Source: Paracoccus sp. (in: a-proteobacteria) (GTDB lineage Bacteria > Pseudomonadota > Alphaproteobacteria > Rhodobacterales > Rhodobacteraceae). Taken from it: DNA of 64,000 nt. The first letter of the stretch is position 1, and each line of letters opens with the position of its first letter. Position numbers and translations under genes: made by a program. The stretch is from positions 82,683 through 146,682 of the forward strand of contig NZ_JAUNTW010000008.1 of NCBI RefSeq assembly GCF_030538495.1. Reading direction: 5' to 3'. The notes under the pieces were generated by a model that saw only the letters and a program-made list of their open reading frames with translations, was not told the origin of the DNA and ran no database searches. Shown here in pieces: positions 37,981-63,544 of the stretch.

Positions 37981-37990
37981 TCGGGGGGCA

Positions 37991-38008
37991 GGGGGCCTTT
38001 CAGCCCCC
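37991..38008 (+). terminator. GC-only hairpin after rnj (GGGGGC-CTTTCA-GCCCCC), without a U-tract
   Basis: Seen directly 10 nt after the rnj stop. It may be a terminator or processing hairpin. Confidence 0.4.
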
Positions 38009-38040
38009 CTCTTGGCCGTTGGCCAATTCACCCCCTTGAG

Positions 38041-38060
38041 GATATTTTTGCACAGAAGAT
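38041..38060 (+). repeat. Copy 1 of the 22-bp motif family (GATATTTTTGCACAGAAGAT), followed by the hairpin AAGGCGGGC-N10-GCCCGCCTT at 38061-38088
   Basis: Seen directly in the rnj/trmB intergenic region. Confidence 0.7.
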
Positions 38061-47094: not shown

Positions 47095-47207
47095 CGGTGG
47101 TCCTTTCGTCGGACATATGCGGCGGGACGGTTCAGGCGCAGCATAGGCAAAGTTCACCGCCCTGCAACCGGTCAAACATGAAATCGTTCCACTCGCGCAA
47201 AAGGATC

Positions 47208-47221
47208 GGGGGCTAGCCCCC
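47208..47221 (-). terminator. Perfect palindrome GGGGGCTAGCCCCC followed on the minus strand by CCTTTTG; likely the fadB terminator
   Basis: Seen directly, 36 nt downstream of the fadB stop. Confidence 0.55.
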
Positions 47222-47230
47222 GAACCCCCA

Positions 47231-47252
47231 GAGTATTTGCGCACAGAAGAAG
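47231..47252 (+). repeat. Copy 2 of the conserved 22-bp motif family (GAGTATTTGCGCACAGAAGAAG)
   Basis: It shares TATTT-N3-CACAGAAGA with the four other copies. Confidence 0.7.
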
Positions 47253-47256
47253 CGGC

Positions 47257-49431
47257 CTAGGCTGCCTTTTGGGCAAAGCGCTGATAGAAGTCTTCGCCTT
47301 TTTCGGCCATGTCACGCAGCAGGTCCGGCGCGGCAAAGCGGTCGCCATAGTGCGCGGCCAGCCCGTCGGCGATGTCAACCGCGCGGGCGGCGCCCATCAT
47401 GTCCAGCCAGCTGAACGGCCCGCCCGACCACGGCGCAAAGCCCCAGCCCAGAATCGCGCCGACATCGCCTTCGCGAATGTCGGTCAGAACGCCGTCTTGC
47501 AGGGCGCGCACGGCCTCGATCGTTTGGGCGAACATCAGGCGGTGCTGAACCGTGGTCAGGTCGGGCTGTTCGCCCTGCGGCCAATGATCAGCCAGCCCCG
47601 GCCACAGCCCGCCGCGTTTGCCCGCATCGTCGTAATCGTAAAAGCCCGCGCCAGCCTTGCGGCCCATGCGCCCCAGATCGGCCAGTTTGAAGATCACGTC
47701 ATCAACCGCGCCATCGGGATAGGCGTCGCCCATGGCGGCCCGCGTGGCGCGCGCGATTTTCACGCCCAGATCAATCGACGTTTCGTCAACCAACTGCAGC
47801 GGACCCAGCGGCATCCCCATCATTTTCGCCGCGTTTTCGATCAGCGTGGGGTTCACGCCTTCGCCGACCATGCGGATGCCTTCGTTGATATAGGGGATGA
47901 TGCAGCGATTGGCGTAAAAGAACCGCGCGTCATTCACCACGATCGGCGTTTTGCGGATTTGGCGCACGAAATCCAATGCCTTGGCCACGGCGCGGTCGCC
48001 GGTTTGTTTGCCGCGGATGATTTCCACCAGCAGCATCTTATCAACGGGGCTAAAGAAGTGGATGCCGATAAACTGATCGGGCCGCGCCGATGCCTGTGCC
48101 AGATCGCTGATCGGCAGGGTGGATGTGTTGGTCGCGAAAATCGCATCCGGCGGGATCACGGCTTCGGCCTGTTGGGTAACCTGGGCCTTGATCGCGGGGT
48201 CTTCGAACACGGCTTCAATCACCAGATCGCAGCCGTCAAGCGCGGCATAATCGGTCGTGGCGTGGATGCGGGCCAGCACCTGTTCTTTCTTATCCTCGGT
48301 CGCTTTTTTGCGGCTGATGGCTTTGTCCAGAAGGCCCGCCGAATACGCCTTGCCCCGATCCGCCGAATCCTGCGCGGCGTCGATCAGCACAACGTCGATC
48401 CCCGCCATGGCCGAGACATAGGCGATGCCCGCGCCCATCATCCCCGCGCCAATAACGCCGACCTTGCGCACCTTTTGATCGGGGGCCTCGGGGCGGTTTG
48501 CGCCTTTTTCCAATGCCTCTTTGTTGATGAACAGGCTGCGGATCATGGCGGTGGATGACGGGTTCATCAGCACATTGGTGAACCAGCGGGCCTCGATCCG
48601 CAGGGCGGTGTCAAAGGGCACCTGCGCGCCTTCGTAAACGGCCGACAGCAGCGCGCGCGCGGCGGGATAGACCCCCATGGTTTTGCCATGCACCATGGCC
48701 GAGGCCCCGACAAAGGTCATAAACCCCGCCGGATGATAGGGCGTGCCGCCGGGCATTTTGTAGCCGCGCGCATCCCACGGTTTCACCAGATCGGCGTCGG
48801 TCGCATTCAGCACCCAGTCGCGCGCGGCGGCGACGGGATCGGCCACAACCTCATCCACGACGCCGGCGGCTTTGGCCTTGTGCGGGGCGTTCAGTTTGCC
48901 TTCCAGCAGCAGGGGGGCGGCGGCCATGACGCCCATTTTCCGGGTCAGCCGCGTGGTGCCGCCCGCGCCGGGGAAAATGCCGACCATGATTTCCGGCAGC
49001 CCGATTTTCGCGCGCGGATTATCGGCGGCAAAGATGCGATGCGTCGCCAGAGGCAGTTCCAGACCGATGCCAAGCGCGGTGCCGGGCAGGGCGGTGGCAA
49101 TCGGTTTACCACCTTTCAGCGTTTTCGGATCCATCCCGGCGCGTTCGATTTTGCGCAGCACGGCATGCAGGGTCATGATGCCGTTATAGACCGATTCGGC
49201 CCCGCTTTCTTTCAGTTGTGCAATCACATTCAGGTCCATCCCACCGGCAAAATCGGGCTTGCCGGATGTGATCACAATGCCCTTGACCGCCGGATCCGCG
49301 ATCGCGTCGTCGATCAGCATGTTCAACGTCGCCACGCCTTGCAGCGACAGCACATTCATCGACTTGCCCGGAACGTCCCAGGTAATAATGGCCACGCCAT
49401 CGTCGCCGGTTTTCATGGTGAAATCGGTCAT
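47257..49431 (-). CDS. fadB: Fatty-acid oxidation complex alpha subunit (enoyl-CoA hydratase / 3-hydroxyacyl-CoA dehydrogenase)
   Basis: N-terminal crotonase fold and a central NAD-binding motif VGVIGAGMMGAGIA. Start at MTDFTMK with an AAGGA RBS. Confidence 0.9.
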   Translation of the reverse strand: MTDFTMKTGDDGVAIITWDVPGKSMNVLSLQGVATLNMLIDDAIADPAVKGIVITSGKPDFAGGMDLNVIAQLKESGAESVYNGIMTLHAVLRKIERAGMDPKTLKGGKPIATALPGTALGIGLELPLATHRIFAADNPRAKIGLPEIMVGIFPGAGGTTRLTRKMGVMAAAPLLLEGKLNAPHKAKAAGVVDEVVADPVAAARDWVLNATDADLVKPWDARGYKMPGGTPYHPAGFMTFVGASAMVHGKTMGVYPAARALLSAVYEGAQVPFDTALRIEARWFTNVLMNPSSTAMIRSLFINKEALEKGANRPEAPDQKVRKVGVIGAGMMGAGIAYVSAMAGIDVVLIDAAQDSADRGKAYSAGLLDKAISRKKATEDKKEQVLARIHATTDYAALDGCDLVIEAVFEDPAIKAQVTQQAEAVIPPDAIFATNTSTLPISDLAQASARPDQFIGIHFFSPVDKMLLVEIIRGKQTGDRAVAKALDFVRQIRKTPIVVNDARFFYANRCIIPYINEGIRMVGEGVNPTLIENAAKMMGMPLGPLQLVDETSIDLGVKIARATRAAMGDAYPDGAVDDVIFKLADLGRMGRKAGAGFYDYDDAGKRGGLWPGLADHWPQGEQPDLTTVQHRLMFAQTIEAVRALQDGVLTDIREGDVGAILGWGFAPWSGGPFSWLDMMGAARAVDIADGLAAHYGDRFAAPDLLRDMAEKGEDFYQRFAQKAA

Positions 49432-49442
49432 GTCGGTGTTCC

Positions 49443-50654
49443 TTATACGCGTTCGATGATGGTCGCCGCGCCCATGCCGGACGCGATGCACAGGGTGGCA
49501 AGGCCGGTCGATTTGCCCTGACGTTCCAATTCATCCAGCAAGGTGCCGATGATGATGGCGCCCGACGCGCCCAGCGGGTGACCCATGGCAATCGCACCGC
49601 CATTGACGTTGACGATGTCGGGCGACACGTCAAACGCCTGCTGGAACCGCAAAACAACGGATGCGAAGGCTTCGTTCACCTCGAACAGGTCGATGTCGCT
49701 GATGGTCATGCCGGATTCGCGCAGGATTTTCTCGGTCACATTAACCGGGCCGGTCAGCATCATGGTGGGGTCGCTGCCGATTTTCGCGGTGGCGCGGATG
49801 CGGGCGCGGGGTTTCAGATCATGCGCGCGGCCAAATTCGGCATTGCCAATCAGCATCGCCGCCGCCCCGTCCACGATGCCCGAGCTGTTGCCCGCGTGGT
49901 GGATGTGGTTAATTTCCGCCAGATGCGGGAATTTCAGCATTGCTACTTTGTCAAATCCGGGCATGACCTGCCCCATATCGGCAAAGCTGGCGCGCAGCTT
50001 CGACAGATCATCCTGCGTCGTTGCGGGGCGCATATATTCGTCGCGTTCCAGAATGGTCAGGCCGTTCTGATCGCGCACCGGGATGACCGACTGGCCAAAG
50101 CGGTTTTCCTGCCAGGCCTGCGCCGCGCGCCGCTGGCTTTCGGTGGCCAAGGCGTCCGCATCGTTGCGGGAAAAGCCATAAGTTGTCGCGATCAGATCGG
50201 CGGCAATGCCTTGGGGGACGAAATAGGTCGGAAAGGTCACGGTGGGGTCCACGGCAACCGCGGCGCCGTCGCTGCCCATGGGAACGCGGCTCATCATTTC
50301 GACGCCGCCCGCGATATAGGCGCTGCCCGCCCCCGCACGCAGTTGGTTGGCGGCCAGATTGACAGCCTCCATCCCCGAGGCGCAGAAGCGGTTGATCGAC
50401 AGGCCCGGCGTGGACGGGTCCAGTTTCGACGCAAGCGCAACCGTGCGCGCCAGACAGCCACCCTGTTCGCCGATTTGGGTGACATTGCCCCAGATCAGAT
50501 CCTCGACCCCGCTGCCGGTCAGACCGTTGCGGTCCAGCATCGCATCGACCAGACGCGACGACAGCGCGACCGAGGTCACCTCGTGCAGGGCGCCATCGGG
50601 GCGGCCCTTGCCGCGCGGCGTGCGAACGGCGTCATAGATAAAGGCTTCGGTCAT
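49443..50654 (-). CDS. fadA: Acetyl-CoA C-acyltransferase (3-ketoacyl-CoA thiolase)
   Basis: The thiolase active-site Cys motif NRFCASGMEA and the C-terminal GLATLCIASGMGAA. Start at MTEAFIYDAVRTPRGKG with a GGAGGA RBS. Confidence 0.92.
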   Translation of the reverse strand: MTEAFIYDAVRTPRGKGRPDGALHEVTSVALSSRLVDAMLDRNGLTGSGVEDLIWGNVTQIGEQGGCLARTVALASKLDPSTPGLSINRFCASGMEAVNLAANQLRAGAGSAYIAGGVEMMSRVPMGSDGAAVAVDPTVTFPTYFVPQGIAADLIATTYGFSRNDADALATESQRRAAQAWQENRFGQSVIPVRDQNGLTILERDEYMRPATTQDDLSKLRASFADMGQVMPGFDKVAMLKFPHLAEINHIHHAGNSSGIVDGAAAMLIGNAEFGRAHDLKPRARIRATAKIGSDPTMMLTGPVNVTEKILRESGMTISDIDLFEVNEAFASVVLRFQQAFDVSPDIVNVNGGAIAMGHPLGASGAIIIGTLLDELERQGKSTGLATLCIASGMGAATIIERV

Positions 50655-50753
50655 GATTCCTCCTCCGGGTGGCCCGGTTGATGTGGCAGGCATCCGCCCC
50701 AGCGGGCAGAGTGCAACAAAGATGTAAATGTCCGGTTAACAGCGCAGGATATT

Positions 50754-50775
50754 GAGTATTTTTGCACAGAAGAAG
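50754..50775 (+). repeat. Copy 3 of the 22-bp motif (GAGTATTTTTGCACAGAAGAAG); the left arm of an inverted pair
   Basis: Seen directly. Confidence 0.75.
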
Positions 50776-50817
50776 CCCGCCGTTCCGCCCGACCGTGACC
50801 AGTGGGCGCGACGGGAT

Positions 50818-50840
50818 GTTTCTTCTGTGTCCAAATACTC
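50818..50840 (-). repeat. Copy 4 (reverse complement GAGTATTTGGACACAGAAGAAA); the right arm of the inverted pair
   Basis: Seen directly. Together with copy 3 it forms an ~87-bp MITE-like element. Confidence 0.75.
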
Positions 50841-50871
50841 ATATCCCTCACCTGCGGGCGGGTGCCGCGTT

Positions 50872-52647
50872 TCAGAATTGGTCGGCGTCCAAGGCCATGA
50901 CCGGATCCGCGCCTGACTGGATGCGGGCCAGATGGGTGGCGGTCATCGGCAATTGCCGCGCCATGTAATAACGCCCTGTGGTCAGTTTGGTGCGCATGAA
51001 ATCCACGTCATCCGTGCCTGCGTCCAGTGCCGCCTGTGCCGCAACGGCCATGCGCGCCCACATCAGGCCCAATGCCGTATGGCCGAACAGATGCATAAAA
51101 TCATATGACCCGGCCAATGCGTCATTGGGGTTCGTCATGCCGCGTTCCATAAAGAACATCGCCGCCGCTTGCAGGTCTTTCGACGCGGCTTTCAGCGGTG
51201 CGATGAAATCAGCGGCCAGCGGGCCGTCGCCGTGTTCTTTGCAGAAATCACGGATCATCTGGAAAAACGCCATGATGTGTTTGCCGCCGTCCTGCGCCAG
51301 CTTGCGCCCGACCAGATCCAAGGCCTGCACGCCATTCGCGCCTTCGTAGATCATGGTGATACGGGCGTCGCGGACGAATTGCGACATGCCGTGTTCTTCG
51401 ATATAGCCATGCCCGCCATAGACCTGCTGCGCCAGCACGGTGGTGTCAAAGCCTTTGTCGGTCAGGAACCCTTTGATCACCGGGGTCAGAAGCGAGATCA
51501 TCCCTTCGGCATCCGCGTCATTGGCCATGCTGCTGCGGTCGATCAGATGCGCGCCCCACAAGGTCAGCATCCGCGCGCCCTCAAGGAAGGATTTCTGATC
51601 CATCAGGCTGCGGCGAATATCGGGATGCACGATCAGCGGATCGGCGGGGCCGTCCGGGTTTTCTGCGCCCGTCACCGCGCGCCCCTGCAAACGGTCGCGG
51701 GCATAGGCGACCGCGTTCTGATAGGCGGCAACCGCCACGGCGTAACCTTGCAGGCCGACGCCCAGACGCGCTTCGTTCATCATGGTGAACATGGCGCGCA
51801 TCCCTTTGTGCAGATCGCCCAAGAGCCAGCCCTGCGCGTCGTCAAAGTTCATCACACAGGTGGCGTTGCCGTGGATGCCCATTTTATGTTCAAGCGCGCC
51901 GACACTGACGCCGTTCCGGTCGCCCAGACTGCCATCATCATTGATCAGCAATTTCGGCACGATGAACAGGCTGATGCCGCGCGTGCCGGGGCCGCCTCCG
52001 GGGGCTTTGGCCAGAACCAGATGGATCACGTTTTCCGAAAGGTCATGATCACCGGCCGAGATGAAAATCTTTTGCCCCGTAATACGATAGCTGCCATCGT
52101 CCTGCGGTTCAGCGCGCGTGCGCAACAGACCCAGATCGGTGCCGCAATGCGGTTCGGTCAGGTTCATCGTGCCGGTCCAGTCGCAGCTGACCATTTTCGG
52201 CAGATAGGTGGCCTTCTGGTCGTCGGTGCCATGCGTGTGGATCGCGGAATAGGCGCCATGCGTCAGGCCCTGATACATGTTGAACGCCATATTCGCGGAC
52301 ACAAACATCTCGCCCGTGGCCACGCCCATCACATAAGGCATGCCCTGACCGCCATAATCGGGGTCGCAATCAAGCGCGGTCCAGCCGCCATCTTTGACCG
52401 CCTGAAACGCCGCGCCGAATCCGTCCGGGGTGCGCACAACGCCGTTTTCCAGAACGCAGCCCTGCCGGTCTCCAACCGCGTTCAGGGGGACCAGCACATC
52501 GGCGGACAGTTTGCCCGCCGCGTCCAGAACCGCCTGGGTAAAGCTGGCATCCAGTTCATCGTGACCCGGCAAAGCGGTTTCCGACAGTTTCAGCACATGA
52601 TGCAGCGCAAACTGCATGTCTTGGATCGGGGGCGCATAAATGGTCAT
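50872..52647 (-). CDS. Large (591 aa) acyl-CoA dehydrogenase family protein with an N-terminal extension (FadE/AidB-like)
   Basis: Acyl-CoA dehydrogenase middle and C-terminal domains (the YEGANGVQA pattern). Its ATG is 3 nt downstream of the merR1 stop. Confidence 0.8.
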
Positions 52648-52650
52648 GGT

Positions 52651-53043
52651 TTATCCTGTTGGAGATGTCGGGCTGGTGATCCCAGCCTCGGCGTCGAAAA
52701 TCTGGGCGCGGAGGTCGGAAATCGCCTCGGCCAGTTCGGCATATTGGTGTTCCATATCGTTCAGACGTTCGCGTGCAATGGCCACGGTTGCCGCGATCTG
52801 GGCGCTGTTCGCGCCGCCGGGTTGATACAGTTCCAGCAATTGCCGGATCTGTTCCAGACTGAAGCCAAAGCGTTTTCCCCGCAGGATCAGCGTCAGCCGC
52901 GCGCGGTCGCGACGGTCATACAGACGGTGCTGACCTCGTCTTTGCGGAGAAATCAGTTCCCGCGATTCATAAAAGCGCAGGGTGCGGGGTGTAACGTCAA
53001 AGGCGTCACACATCTGCCGAATGGTCATCAGCGTGTCGGACAT
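52651..53043 (-). CDS. MerR-family transcriptional regulator (LiuR-like), paralog 1
   Basis: HTH FDVTPRTLRFYE plus a coiled-coil C-terminus. 130 aa. Confidence 0.8.
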   Translation of the reverse strand: MSDTLMTIRQMCDAFDVTPRTLRFYESRELISPQRRGQHRLYDRRDRARLTLILRGKRFGFSLEQIRQLLELYQPGGANSAQIAATVAIARERLNDMEHQYAELAEAISDLRAQIFDAEAGITSPTSPTG

Positions 53044-53125
53044 CGTGGCGGTTTCCTCTGTGACCGGCCGTTTCCTGCAGGTCGGTTATAGCAGGGTTGA
53101 CGTGCGCGTAAATTGCGACGCGGCG

Positions 53126-53506
53126 TCAGTCCATGCTGTCCAATTCATGCGCAGCAGTATCCCGCAGGTCGTGCAGGTCCTGTTTCGCAACAATCAATTC
53201 GTCGATCTGGGTCTGAAGATGTTCCAGCTGGCGATCCGCATATTCAATAAGCACCTGATATTGTTCACGCGATCCCTGGTTATCATACATCTGCAACCAC
53301 TGGCGGATTTCTTCCAGCGAAAAACCGAACCGTCGCCCGCGCAAGATAAGGGTCATGCGCGCCACATCACGGGCGTTGTAAAACCGCGCGCGCCCTTCAC
53401 GGGCTGGGTTCAGCAGTTCGATATATTCGTAGTAACGCAATGTGCGCGGGGTCACGTCAAAGCGGGCGCACATATCCTTAAAGTTGATTCGTGTCTGTGT
53501 CGTCAT
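53126..53506 (-). CDS. MerR-family transcriptional regulator, paralog 2
   Basis: FDVTPRTLRYYE HTH. Start chosen at MTTQTR with a GAGGTGGA RBS. It shares a LTLILRG[KR]RFGFSLE[EQ]IRQ block with paralog 1. Confidence 0.75.
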   Translation of the reverse strand: MTTQTRINFKDMCARFDVTPRTLRYYEYIELLNPAREGRARFYNARDVARMTLILRGRRFGFSLEEIRQWLQMYDNQGSREQYQVLIEYADRQLEHLQTQIDELIVAKQDLHDLRDTAAHELDSMD

Positions 53507-53644
53507 GGTCCACCTCGACAAGTTCCCCATGGGTAAAGTTAGGATGCTTTGGCCGGTCACTCAATGCGGCAGTTAAAATTTTCGGGGTCTTGGCCGCGGC
53601 GGGCTGTCGCATTACAAGCGGGCAAACCCATCGGGGACGTAGGC

Positions 53645-63467: not shown

Positions 63468-63480
63468 GGGCGTTCGACGG

Positions 63481-63505
63481 GGAAAAGGTCCACTGGACCT
63501 TTTCC
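63481..63505. other. Perfect 11-bp hairpin GGAAAAGGTCC-ACT-GGACCTTTTCC
   Basis: Seen directly in the surE/tauE divergent region. Confidence 0.6.
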
Positions 63506-63523
63506 TGACCCGTCTCACCCCGG

Positions 63524-63544
63524 GATATTTACGCACAGAAGATC
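63524..63544 (+). repeat. Copy 5 of the 22-bp motif (GATATTTACGCACAGAAGATC)
   Basis: Seen directly in the surE/tauE divergent region. Confidence 0.7.

Follow-up and report, generated by a model that had tools for sequence, protein, structure and literature searches.

We found that the inverted pair of 22-mers lying between an acyl-CoA dehydrogenase gene (acdH) and a thiolase gene (fadA-like) of Paracoccus sp. is, as judged by sequence comparison, a doublet of two tail-to-tail copies of a short repeat module that lies between genes and is characteristic of Paracoccus and other Rhodobacteraceae. The family is a REP/BIME-like dispersed mosaic intergenic repeat and not a fad operator, because its copies in the window are all intergenic with unrelated neighbours and its core is present in many Paracoccus genomes, where it is usually fused to a GC hairpin after a stop codon. 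In relatives, comparative alignment indicates that the complementarity of the arms is selected, since the arm sequences vary between lineages yet remain complementary. The window, by which we mean the whole 64-kb stretch of DNA analysed, carries a minimal version of a larger element found in these relatives: it keeps the stem that closes the element and a single inner GC hairpin, and lacks the conserved interior hairpin. The best reading, to which we assign a probability of roughly 0.45, is that the doublet would form an RNA stem in the acdH-fadAB transcript and affect its processing or stability. We infer both that the selected structure is RNA, the hairpin being probably in the mRNA, and how it acts.

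The doublet between acdH and fadA

The doublet is embedded in a run of minus-strand genes, in the order MerR-family gene (53126-53560), second MerR-family gene (52651-53043), acyl-CoA dehydrogenase (50872-52647, Pfam Acyl-CoA_dh_N/M/1/C), the element, thiolase (49443-50654, 100% identical to a Paracoccus sp. protein), fadB-like enoyl-CoA hydratase/3-hydroxyacyl-CoA dehydrogenase (47257-49491, with an unrefined start codon) and telA. The genes flanking the doublet are co-directional; the acdH stop codon (50872-50874) is 31 nt and the thiolase ATG (at 50654) 99 nt from the pair of 22-mers. A promoter scan found no sigma-70 promoter in the acdH-fadA spacer. Further upstream, the spacer between the two MerR-family genes (53044-53125) contains an imperfect inverted repeat, TTGACGTGCGCG-TAAATT-GCGACGCGGCGTCA, which could be the operator/promoter of the LiuR-like regulator heading the acdH-fadAB cluster. 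Read on the strand of the gene, the ribosome-binding region (53053-53062) of the second MerR-family gene (52651-53043) is CACAGAGGAAAC, which differs by a single base from the repeat's purine block CACAGAAGAA. This purine block resembles a Shine-Dalgarno sequence, and several Paracoccus loci have a start codon 10-20 nt past the end of the core.

Direct reading of the sequence placed the two 22-mers at 50754-50775 (plus strand, GAGTATTTTTGCACAGAAGAAG) and 50819-50840 (minus strand, TTTCTTCTGTGTCCAAATACTC), as an earlier sequence-only reading of this DNA had proposed; it located the first copy correctly and began the inverted copy one base off, at 50818 instead of 50819. The 22-nt cores of the two arms match each other except in a 3-nt loop and in the last base, and the number of matches expected by chance for the 22-mer at up to three mismatches is 0. 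A repeat finder delimited arms of 38 nt at 50753-50790 and 50804-50841, with 76% complementarity, and pairing of an outer GGATAT with ATATCC widens the palindrome to 50747-50847. Outside the internal loop, the arms of the doublet are perfectly complementary.

On the mRNA strand, the first arm (50819-50847, minus) reads GGGATAT-GAGTATTT-GGA-CACAGAAGAAA and begins 24 nt past the acdH stop codon; like the second arm, it was defined from the sequence, the repeat finder and the fold. The second arm (50747-50775) reads GGATATT-GAGTATTT-TTG-CACAGAAGAAG on the plus strand, which corresponds to CUUCUUCUGUG-CAA-AAAUACUC-AAUAUCC on the mRNA strand. Between them lies the GC-rich spacer (50776-50818), with an inner hairpin CCCGUCGCGCCC...GGGCGGAACGGCGGG seen in the sequence and in the fold. 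Its hairpin potential had been noticed from the letters, and the hairpin does form in the RNA fold; compared with the loci L115 and L106, it is positioned like the P2 helix of the larger element described below. A purine.purine mismatch beside UAUUU:AAAUA, mostly G.A in relatives and conserved there, is kept in the window copy save its last base.

For 50744-50850 the RNA fold had an energy of -57.0 kcal/mol and a z of -7.7 on the minus strand, and of -54.8 kcal/mol and -8.2 on the plus strand, and on neither strand was any shuffled sequence equally stable. The minimum-energy fold of the entire acyl-CoA dehydrogenase/thiolase spacer also pairs both arms.

A dispersed family of intergenic modules

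The family core, GRRTATTT-N3-CACAGAAGA (20 nt), gave 5 matches in the 64-kb window against 0.10 expected. Besides the doublet these are single copies at 38040, 47231 and 63523, as had been pointed out from the sequence; a count of the copies showed all five to be intergenic, with unrelated genes as neighbours. The single copy GAGTATTTGCGCACAGAAGAAG (47231-47252, plus strand), defined by motif match and sequence, is fused to a C-run and a GC hairpin, GGGGGCTAGCCCCC, the whole occupying 47206-47252. On the mRNA strand this copy comes after the fadB stop codon, and its hairpin (47206-47223), which the terminator scan scored as terminator-like, is followed by TCCTTTTG and has the GC-rich stem-loop and T-run of an intrinsic terminator. 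The other two, both on the plus strand and found by motif match, are GGATATTTTTGCACAGAAGAT (38040-38060), placed after two hairpins and a C-run in the spacer between the RNase J gene and trmB (37985-38060), and GGATATTTACGCACAGAAGAT (63523-63543), which follows the hairpin GGGGAAAAGGTCCACTGGACCTTTTCC between surE and a membrane-protein gene (63476-63543).

The copies fall into subtypes. The three around fadAB (47231-47252, 50754-50775 and 50819-50840) share a common GAG...AGAAGAAG subtype, and the two distant ones belong to a GGA...AGAAGAT subtype; fadA-fadB is bracketed by direct repeats, namely the arm at 50754 and the copy after fadB. The same split was observed between Paracoccus genomes as well, the copies of MAG S5R_Sa_4 being all GAG...AAG. 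In one sub-family, with A-tract and T-tract flanks like those of a bidirectional terminator, the hairpin GAAAAGGTCCACTGGACCTTTTC precedes GGC..CTCACCCC and the core; it was found at 63476-63502 of the window, near 3800 of L006 and near 2290 of L032, which are non-orthologous loci of three Paracoccus species.

A scan for the core that covered one genome per species returned at least 105 stretches, at least 44 of them from Paracoccus, representing at least ten Paracoccus species and MAGs. Among the matches listed, a few came from Cypionkella, Frigidibacter and unnamed Rhodobacterales, and the others were single chance hits in mostly unrelated, often AT-rich organisms. The canonical module, used as a blastn query, matched replicons of Paracoccus, Gemmobacter, Cereibacter and Sagittula. 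Alignment of 55 exact copies gave a 5' part composed of a stop codon, a GC hairpin (for example CCGGGGGC-N4-GCCCCCGG) and sometimes a second hairpin, and a 3' part composed of ACCCCCG, GGATATTT, two free bases, R, CACAGAAGA, T/A and G. According to crude GC3-based gene calls, in about 40 of the 55 copies the gene upstream runs in the same direction and its stop codon lies 29-70 nt ahead of the core, the GC hairpin and C-run standing between them; downstream, the same calls placed either a start codon (at 0-45 nt) or a convergent stop codon (at 1-30 nt). The core of 20-22 nt is itself not palindromic, and the GC palindrome that adjoins it in canonical modules is missing from the arms at 50747-50847. 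Tail-to-tail doublets occur at five other loci too (L007, L064, L084, L091 and L094). The core is kept across genera, while copies inside one genome differ. Because single copies keep the core though they have no partner, pairing is not the sole constraint on the family.

The larger element at the orthologous locus

Orthologous spacers were gathered through thiolase homologues and by searching metagenomes for AcdH. Most of them have, at the same locus and in the same orientation, an element of about 190 nt (172-212 nt) closed by both arms, which was seen in at least 27 relatives among the Rhodobacteraceae. The full element sits after acdH, or after a small ORF following acdH (L106, L107, L111, L112, L114 and metagenome loci). 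Copies of the element lie at L107:1622-1813, at L114:1618-1814 and, outside the acdH locus, at L195:2517-2710, with about 40 further loci in alignment A1. Its first half consists of the left arm GGGTATTT-nn-X, the GC helix P2, a middle copy X' and the hairpin P3 (GCGGTCATCGGCTCCCCAGCCTGTACCGC), and its second half of a GGTTAA-containing segment and the right arm X''-nn-AAATACCC. A G-run and a GC hairpin often come after the right arm, and the ribosome-binding site next in line belongs to a GST-like gene or to fadA. The sequence X varies widely by lineage (CACAGAAGAA, AACGGAAAAGA, AACGGTGAAAC, CCAAAGCGAGG, CAAAGATGAAG and others), and X' and X'' track it in each; in alignment A1 the TATTT block is the sole invariant part of the arms. 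Reduced versions were also found at the acdH locus, with both arms only (L126, L181) or with the right arm only (L131, L135, L164, L172). In P. pantotrophus a second full copy lies between ntrX and trkA, and on chromosome 2 of P. denitrificans blastn found five places for the ~190-nt element.

The closing stem, with its internal loop after UAUUU:AAAUA, is present in relatives and in the window alike. A strict pattern search of the window found neither the interior hairpin P3 (GCGGTCATCGGCTCCCCAGCCTGTACCGC), the most conserved part of the element in relatives, nor the middle copy X'. The full element is present in the closest relatives, L115 and L106 (82-83% identity); the window form may therefore plausibly have originated by deletion between X' and X'', which are direct repeats.

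Several observations concern the interior and the surroundings of the element. The P3 hairpin GGTCATCGGCTCCCCAGCCTGTACCG is 87-100% identical far beyond Rhodobacteraceae, in Azospirillum brasilense (L196:2498-2540) and on a 19-kb Shinella plasmid (L197:2489-2543), and blastn also matched it in Rhizobium and Thiothrix plasmids; the Shinella P3 is located about 170 nt past a canonical GGATATTT module, upstream of hicAB. An ORF of about 90 codons, MP.RFRLTRRFPVAMTEDGYRRL...RLRLFN.ELE.RKR, is kept between acdH and the structured element at metagenome loci (L126:3300-3560, L127 and L123) and was seen in many non-Paracoccus relatives. In the window, GTTAACC stands at 50731-50737 (region 50728-50737), just outside the element. 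In relatives a GTTAAC / TTAA-N7-TTAAC-like palindrome, which by eye only resembles a CtrA-type box, is kept near the right arm (P4 segment of alignment A1; GTTAACAACAGGTTAA in L121 and GGTTAAGACAAACCTAACC in L120).

Covariation was scored on 27 distinct sequences of alignment A1. In the lower stem of P1 pairing was 100% and 3 of 8 pairs had changed on both sides; the corresponding figures were 95.6% and 10 of 11 for the upper stem, and 96.6% and 4 of 11 for P3. None of 500 shuffles reached the covariation score, and controls in which the partner was slid were 37-45% paired versus 90.6% in the true register. An alternative helix, X:X', was about equally supported (90.6% paired, 10 of 11 pairs covarying, one conserved A.C mismatch). 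The two copies of P. pantotrophus, at the acdH locus (L198) and at the ntrX-trkA locus (L195), have arm sequences that differ and are each self-complementary; the covariation therefore operates per copy and points to selection for pairing, not to genome-wide drift of a repeat. Among the orthologous spacers, the arms pair in the minimum-energy fold in 4 of 6.

The strand on which the structure acts is less clearly marked. Non-canonical pairs in the closing stem favoured no strand (7 G.U versus 8 A.C), those in P3 favoured the gene strand (26 U.G) and those in the alternative helix the opposite strand (26 A.C). Because the fold is equally stable on both strands and the G.U/A.C counts are undecided, the covariation would be just as compatible with a hairpin of DNA or of single-stranded DNA.

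Possible roles, alternatives and known systems

As an RNA stem, the doublet might work as follows. In the co-directional acdH-fadA-fadB transcript the arms would form, by pairing, a helix of about 25 bp with interruptions, made of a UAUUU-containing lower stem of 8 bp, a purine-rich internal loop, an upper stem of 10-11 bp and the outer GGAUAU:AUAUCC pairing. Its action would be post-transcriptional: the helix would impede 3' exonucleases and/or serve as a substrate for a double-strand RNase, and it would bury the AU-rich AUAUUU stretch, which in single copies may be an accessible RNase E-type site. The stability or amount of the acdH and fadAB segments of the mRNA would thus be uncoupled. In single modules, a 3' hairpin would be protected and the AU-rich site after it accessible. 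In Rhodobacter, RNase E favours AU-rich sites that are single-stranded, in spite of the high GC content, and hairpins influence the stability of puf mRNA segments (PMC6238624).

A second reading, which we hold to be possible and rank as tentative, takes the arms as the closing helix of an undescribed ~190-nt structured RNA of Rhodobacteraceae, a switch or a protein-binding RNA between cistrons (acdH to GST/fadAB, ntrX to trkA). The dispersed GGATATTT modules would then be simpler relatives serving as mRNA processing signals, and the window would hold a natural minimal version. As a switch, the left arm would pair either with the right arm or with the middle copy, in two mutually exclusive helices both supported by covariation. 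The P3 hairpin of this element has a near-invariant sequence in organisms as distant as Paracoccus and Azospirillum and on plasmids of Rhizobiaceae and Thiothrix. Sequestration of the downstream Shine-Dalgarno sequence by X', which reads CUCC/CACC, was tested and rejected, as its duplex energy (-10.5 kcal/mol) was no better than that of shuffled X' (-9.9 kcal/mol). Readings of the core as a sigma-54, RpoH, IHF, CtrA, attC, DnaA-box or boxA site, judged by eye, were set aside for misfits in spacing or consensus.

It is rather unlikely, in our view, that the family is a selfish REPIN- or MITE-like DNA repeat, with the doublet as a mobilisable unit whose single-stranded DNA hairpin is copied by some transposase, the singles as decayed halves, and no host function. 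The family is indeed dispersed, extragenic and multi-copy, with inverted doublets, its modules are present on small plasmids too, and the hairpin is equally good on both strands. Sub-families set by differing hairpin modules recur at non-orthologous loci of different species (the window copy at 38040 is like L051, and that at 63523 like L006 and L032), and the module in the rnj-trmB spacer of the window is absent from its ortholog in L084. However, no target-site duplication was found at the ends of the doublet: the flanks outside 50747-50847 (ttaacagcgca and ctcacctgcgg) are not direct repeats, and the bases beside the 22-mers belong to the palindrome. A core common to genera, with copies that differ within a genome, is the opposite of what REPIN populations show, and the doublet is kept at one orthologous site, with compensatory change in each copy, across lineages of 71-83% AcdH identity. 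The copies are also strongly biased in orientation and distance relative to stop codons, and no transposase was seen next to any of them in an unsystematic look.

These results bear on the earlier description of the element as MITE- or REP-like. The REP-like half holds, the family being dispersed and intergenic with a recurrent inverted doublet. The doublet does have terminal inverted repeats around a short non-coding core, as a MITE has, but a MITE in the strict sense is not supported: besides the missing duplication, no copies of the whole element (arms and spacer) were found in the 64 kb and in about 1.2 Mb of related loci, where only the arm motif recurs. The doublet also holds its orthologous position across Rhodobacteraceae, with compensatory arm changes.

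Because it lacks P3, the most conserved part of the element in relatives, the window copy may be a decaying remnant. In its full form, as a non-functional relic, an ancestral ~190-nt element would have lost its interior (P3/P4) by deletion between two direct copies of a pyrimidine block, leaving a palindrome that has not yet decayed; we regard this as improbable to a similar degree as a selfish origin. It agrees with the full element in the closest relatives, with the missing P3, with an interior bounded in relatives by the direct repeats X' and X'', which would favour such a deletion, and with a window spacer that starts after the left arm like that of L115 (CATCCC...). Against it, the arms are still perfectly complementary outside the internal loop, which itself keeps the purine.purine character of relatives except in the last base, and arms-only forms exist independently in L126 and L181, which suggests that the stem alone is stable, tolerated or useful.

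A factor-independent terminator or attenuator between acdH and fadA is very unlikely. The hairpin is very stable and directly past a stop codon, and modules of the family usually have terminator-like GC hairpins, the copy after fadB scoring as one; but the stem of the doublet is followed by AAUAUCCUGCGCUG (tail AATATCCTGCG) with no U-run, the terminator scan was silent at 50744-50850, and functionally linked genes continue downstream in the same direction. Because it lacks a T-run after the stem, the doublet is not a canonical terminator.

We give still less credit to a pair of protein-binding DNA sites, either an operator or a looping site serving a regulator of lipid catabolism (for example the adjacent MerR-family proteins), as the sequence-only reading had offered as an alternative, or a site for a nucleoid-associated protein: an inverted pair ahead of fadAB, two MerR-family genes upstream and an invariant TATTT block would suit it, but the motif adjoins RNase J/trmB, surE and telA here and a wide variety of unrelated genes in other Paracoccus, the purine-rich half of each arm is unconserved between species (CACAGAAGAA, AACGGAAAAGA, CCAAAGCGAGG, others) with only complementarity kept, the arm spacing ranges from 8 to about 150 nt, and no promoter-like site, within whose spacer MerR-type regulators act, was found between the genes.

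In Rfam, the whole window at the gathering threshold yielded only a tRNA, a local E-value scan of the element only a plant miRNA-precursor model (26 bits versus a threshold of 64), and the full elements of relatives nothing meaningful. No published description of the motif or of P3 was found in the literature searched, which is absence of evidence within that scope only, and the P. denitrificans sRNA supplement contained no P3 or arm sequences. A paper on the regulon printed no LiuR motif for comparison. If the RNA stem reading is true, Paracoccus and its relatives share a modular intergenic signal, combining a GC hairpin with a rare patch rich in AU and a block rich in purines, that shapes mRNA ends and the relative expression of neighbouring genes, and some loci build two modules into larger selected structures. 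The family accounts for many unannotated conserved intergenic palindromes in Rhodobacteraceae genomes, and searches for operators, small RNAs and mobile elements should mask or model it. The family is present in Cereibacter, the genus to which the organism published as Rhodobacter sphaeroides belongs; for that organism, cleavage maps of RNase E and RNase III exist, so the idea is testable there with published data.

Among known systems, the REP/BIME elements of enterobacteria, such as the intercistronic REPs of malE-malF, are likewise extragenic, multi-copy, placed at gene 3' ends or between cistrons, and organized as mosaics of hairpin modules that are often inverted doublets; their RNA hairpins stabilise the upstream mRNA segment. 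Here, in contrast, the conserved core is non-palindromic, AU-rich and purine-rich, stands beside a GC hairpin and is kept across genera. We know of no RAYT link for the Paracoccus family, nor of any sequence similarity to REP. The Correia elements (NEMIS) of Neisseria and the ERIC/IRU elements are similar to the doublet in size and arm length. They measure about 100-150 bp, their terminal inverted repeats pair in co-transcribed mRNA, and cleavage of the hairpins by RNase III or RNase E changes mRNA stability. Correia elements have TA target duplications and are copied as whole elements, whereas here only the arms are dispersed, singles predominate, there is no duplication, and the position of the doublet is conserved with compensatory change. 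The REPIN-RAYT systems of Pseudomonas and E. coli also form a long hairpin from inverted doublets of a short repeat, with singlets alongside doublets. REPIN populations are near-identical within a genome and diverged between species, in contrast to the present family, in which copies differ within a genome and the core is common to genera; the name REPIN cannot be applied without a RAYT gene.

Within the genus, MITEPye1 of Paracoccus yeei, the only MITE described in Paracoccus, is also intergenic, a non-autonomous inverted-repeat element with a predicted long RNA stem-loop (PMC11578231). Its IS1182-family ends, its direct-repeat borders and its low number of 1-3 copies per chromosome (PMC11578231) are all absent from the present family. 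The repeat family is a new addition to intergenic hairpin-forming repeats. The closest model for its possible mode of action comes from the same bacterial family, in the puf operon of Rhodobacter, where intercistronic hairpins and rare AU-rich RNase E sites set segmental mRNA stability (PMC6238624); the puf structures belong to a single locus and are not dispersed repeats, and the motif is likened to them by analogy.
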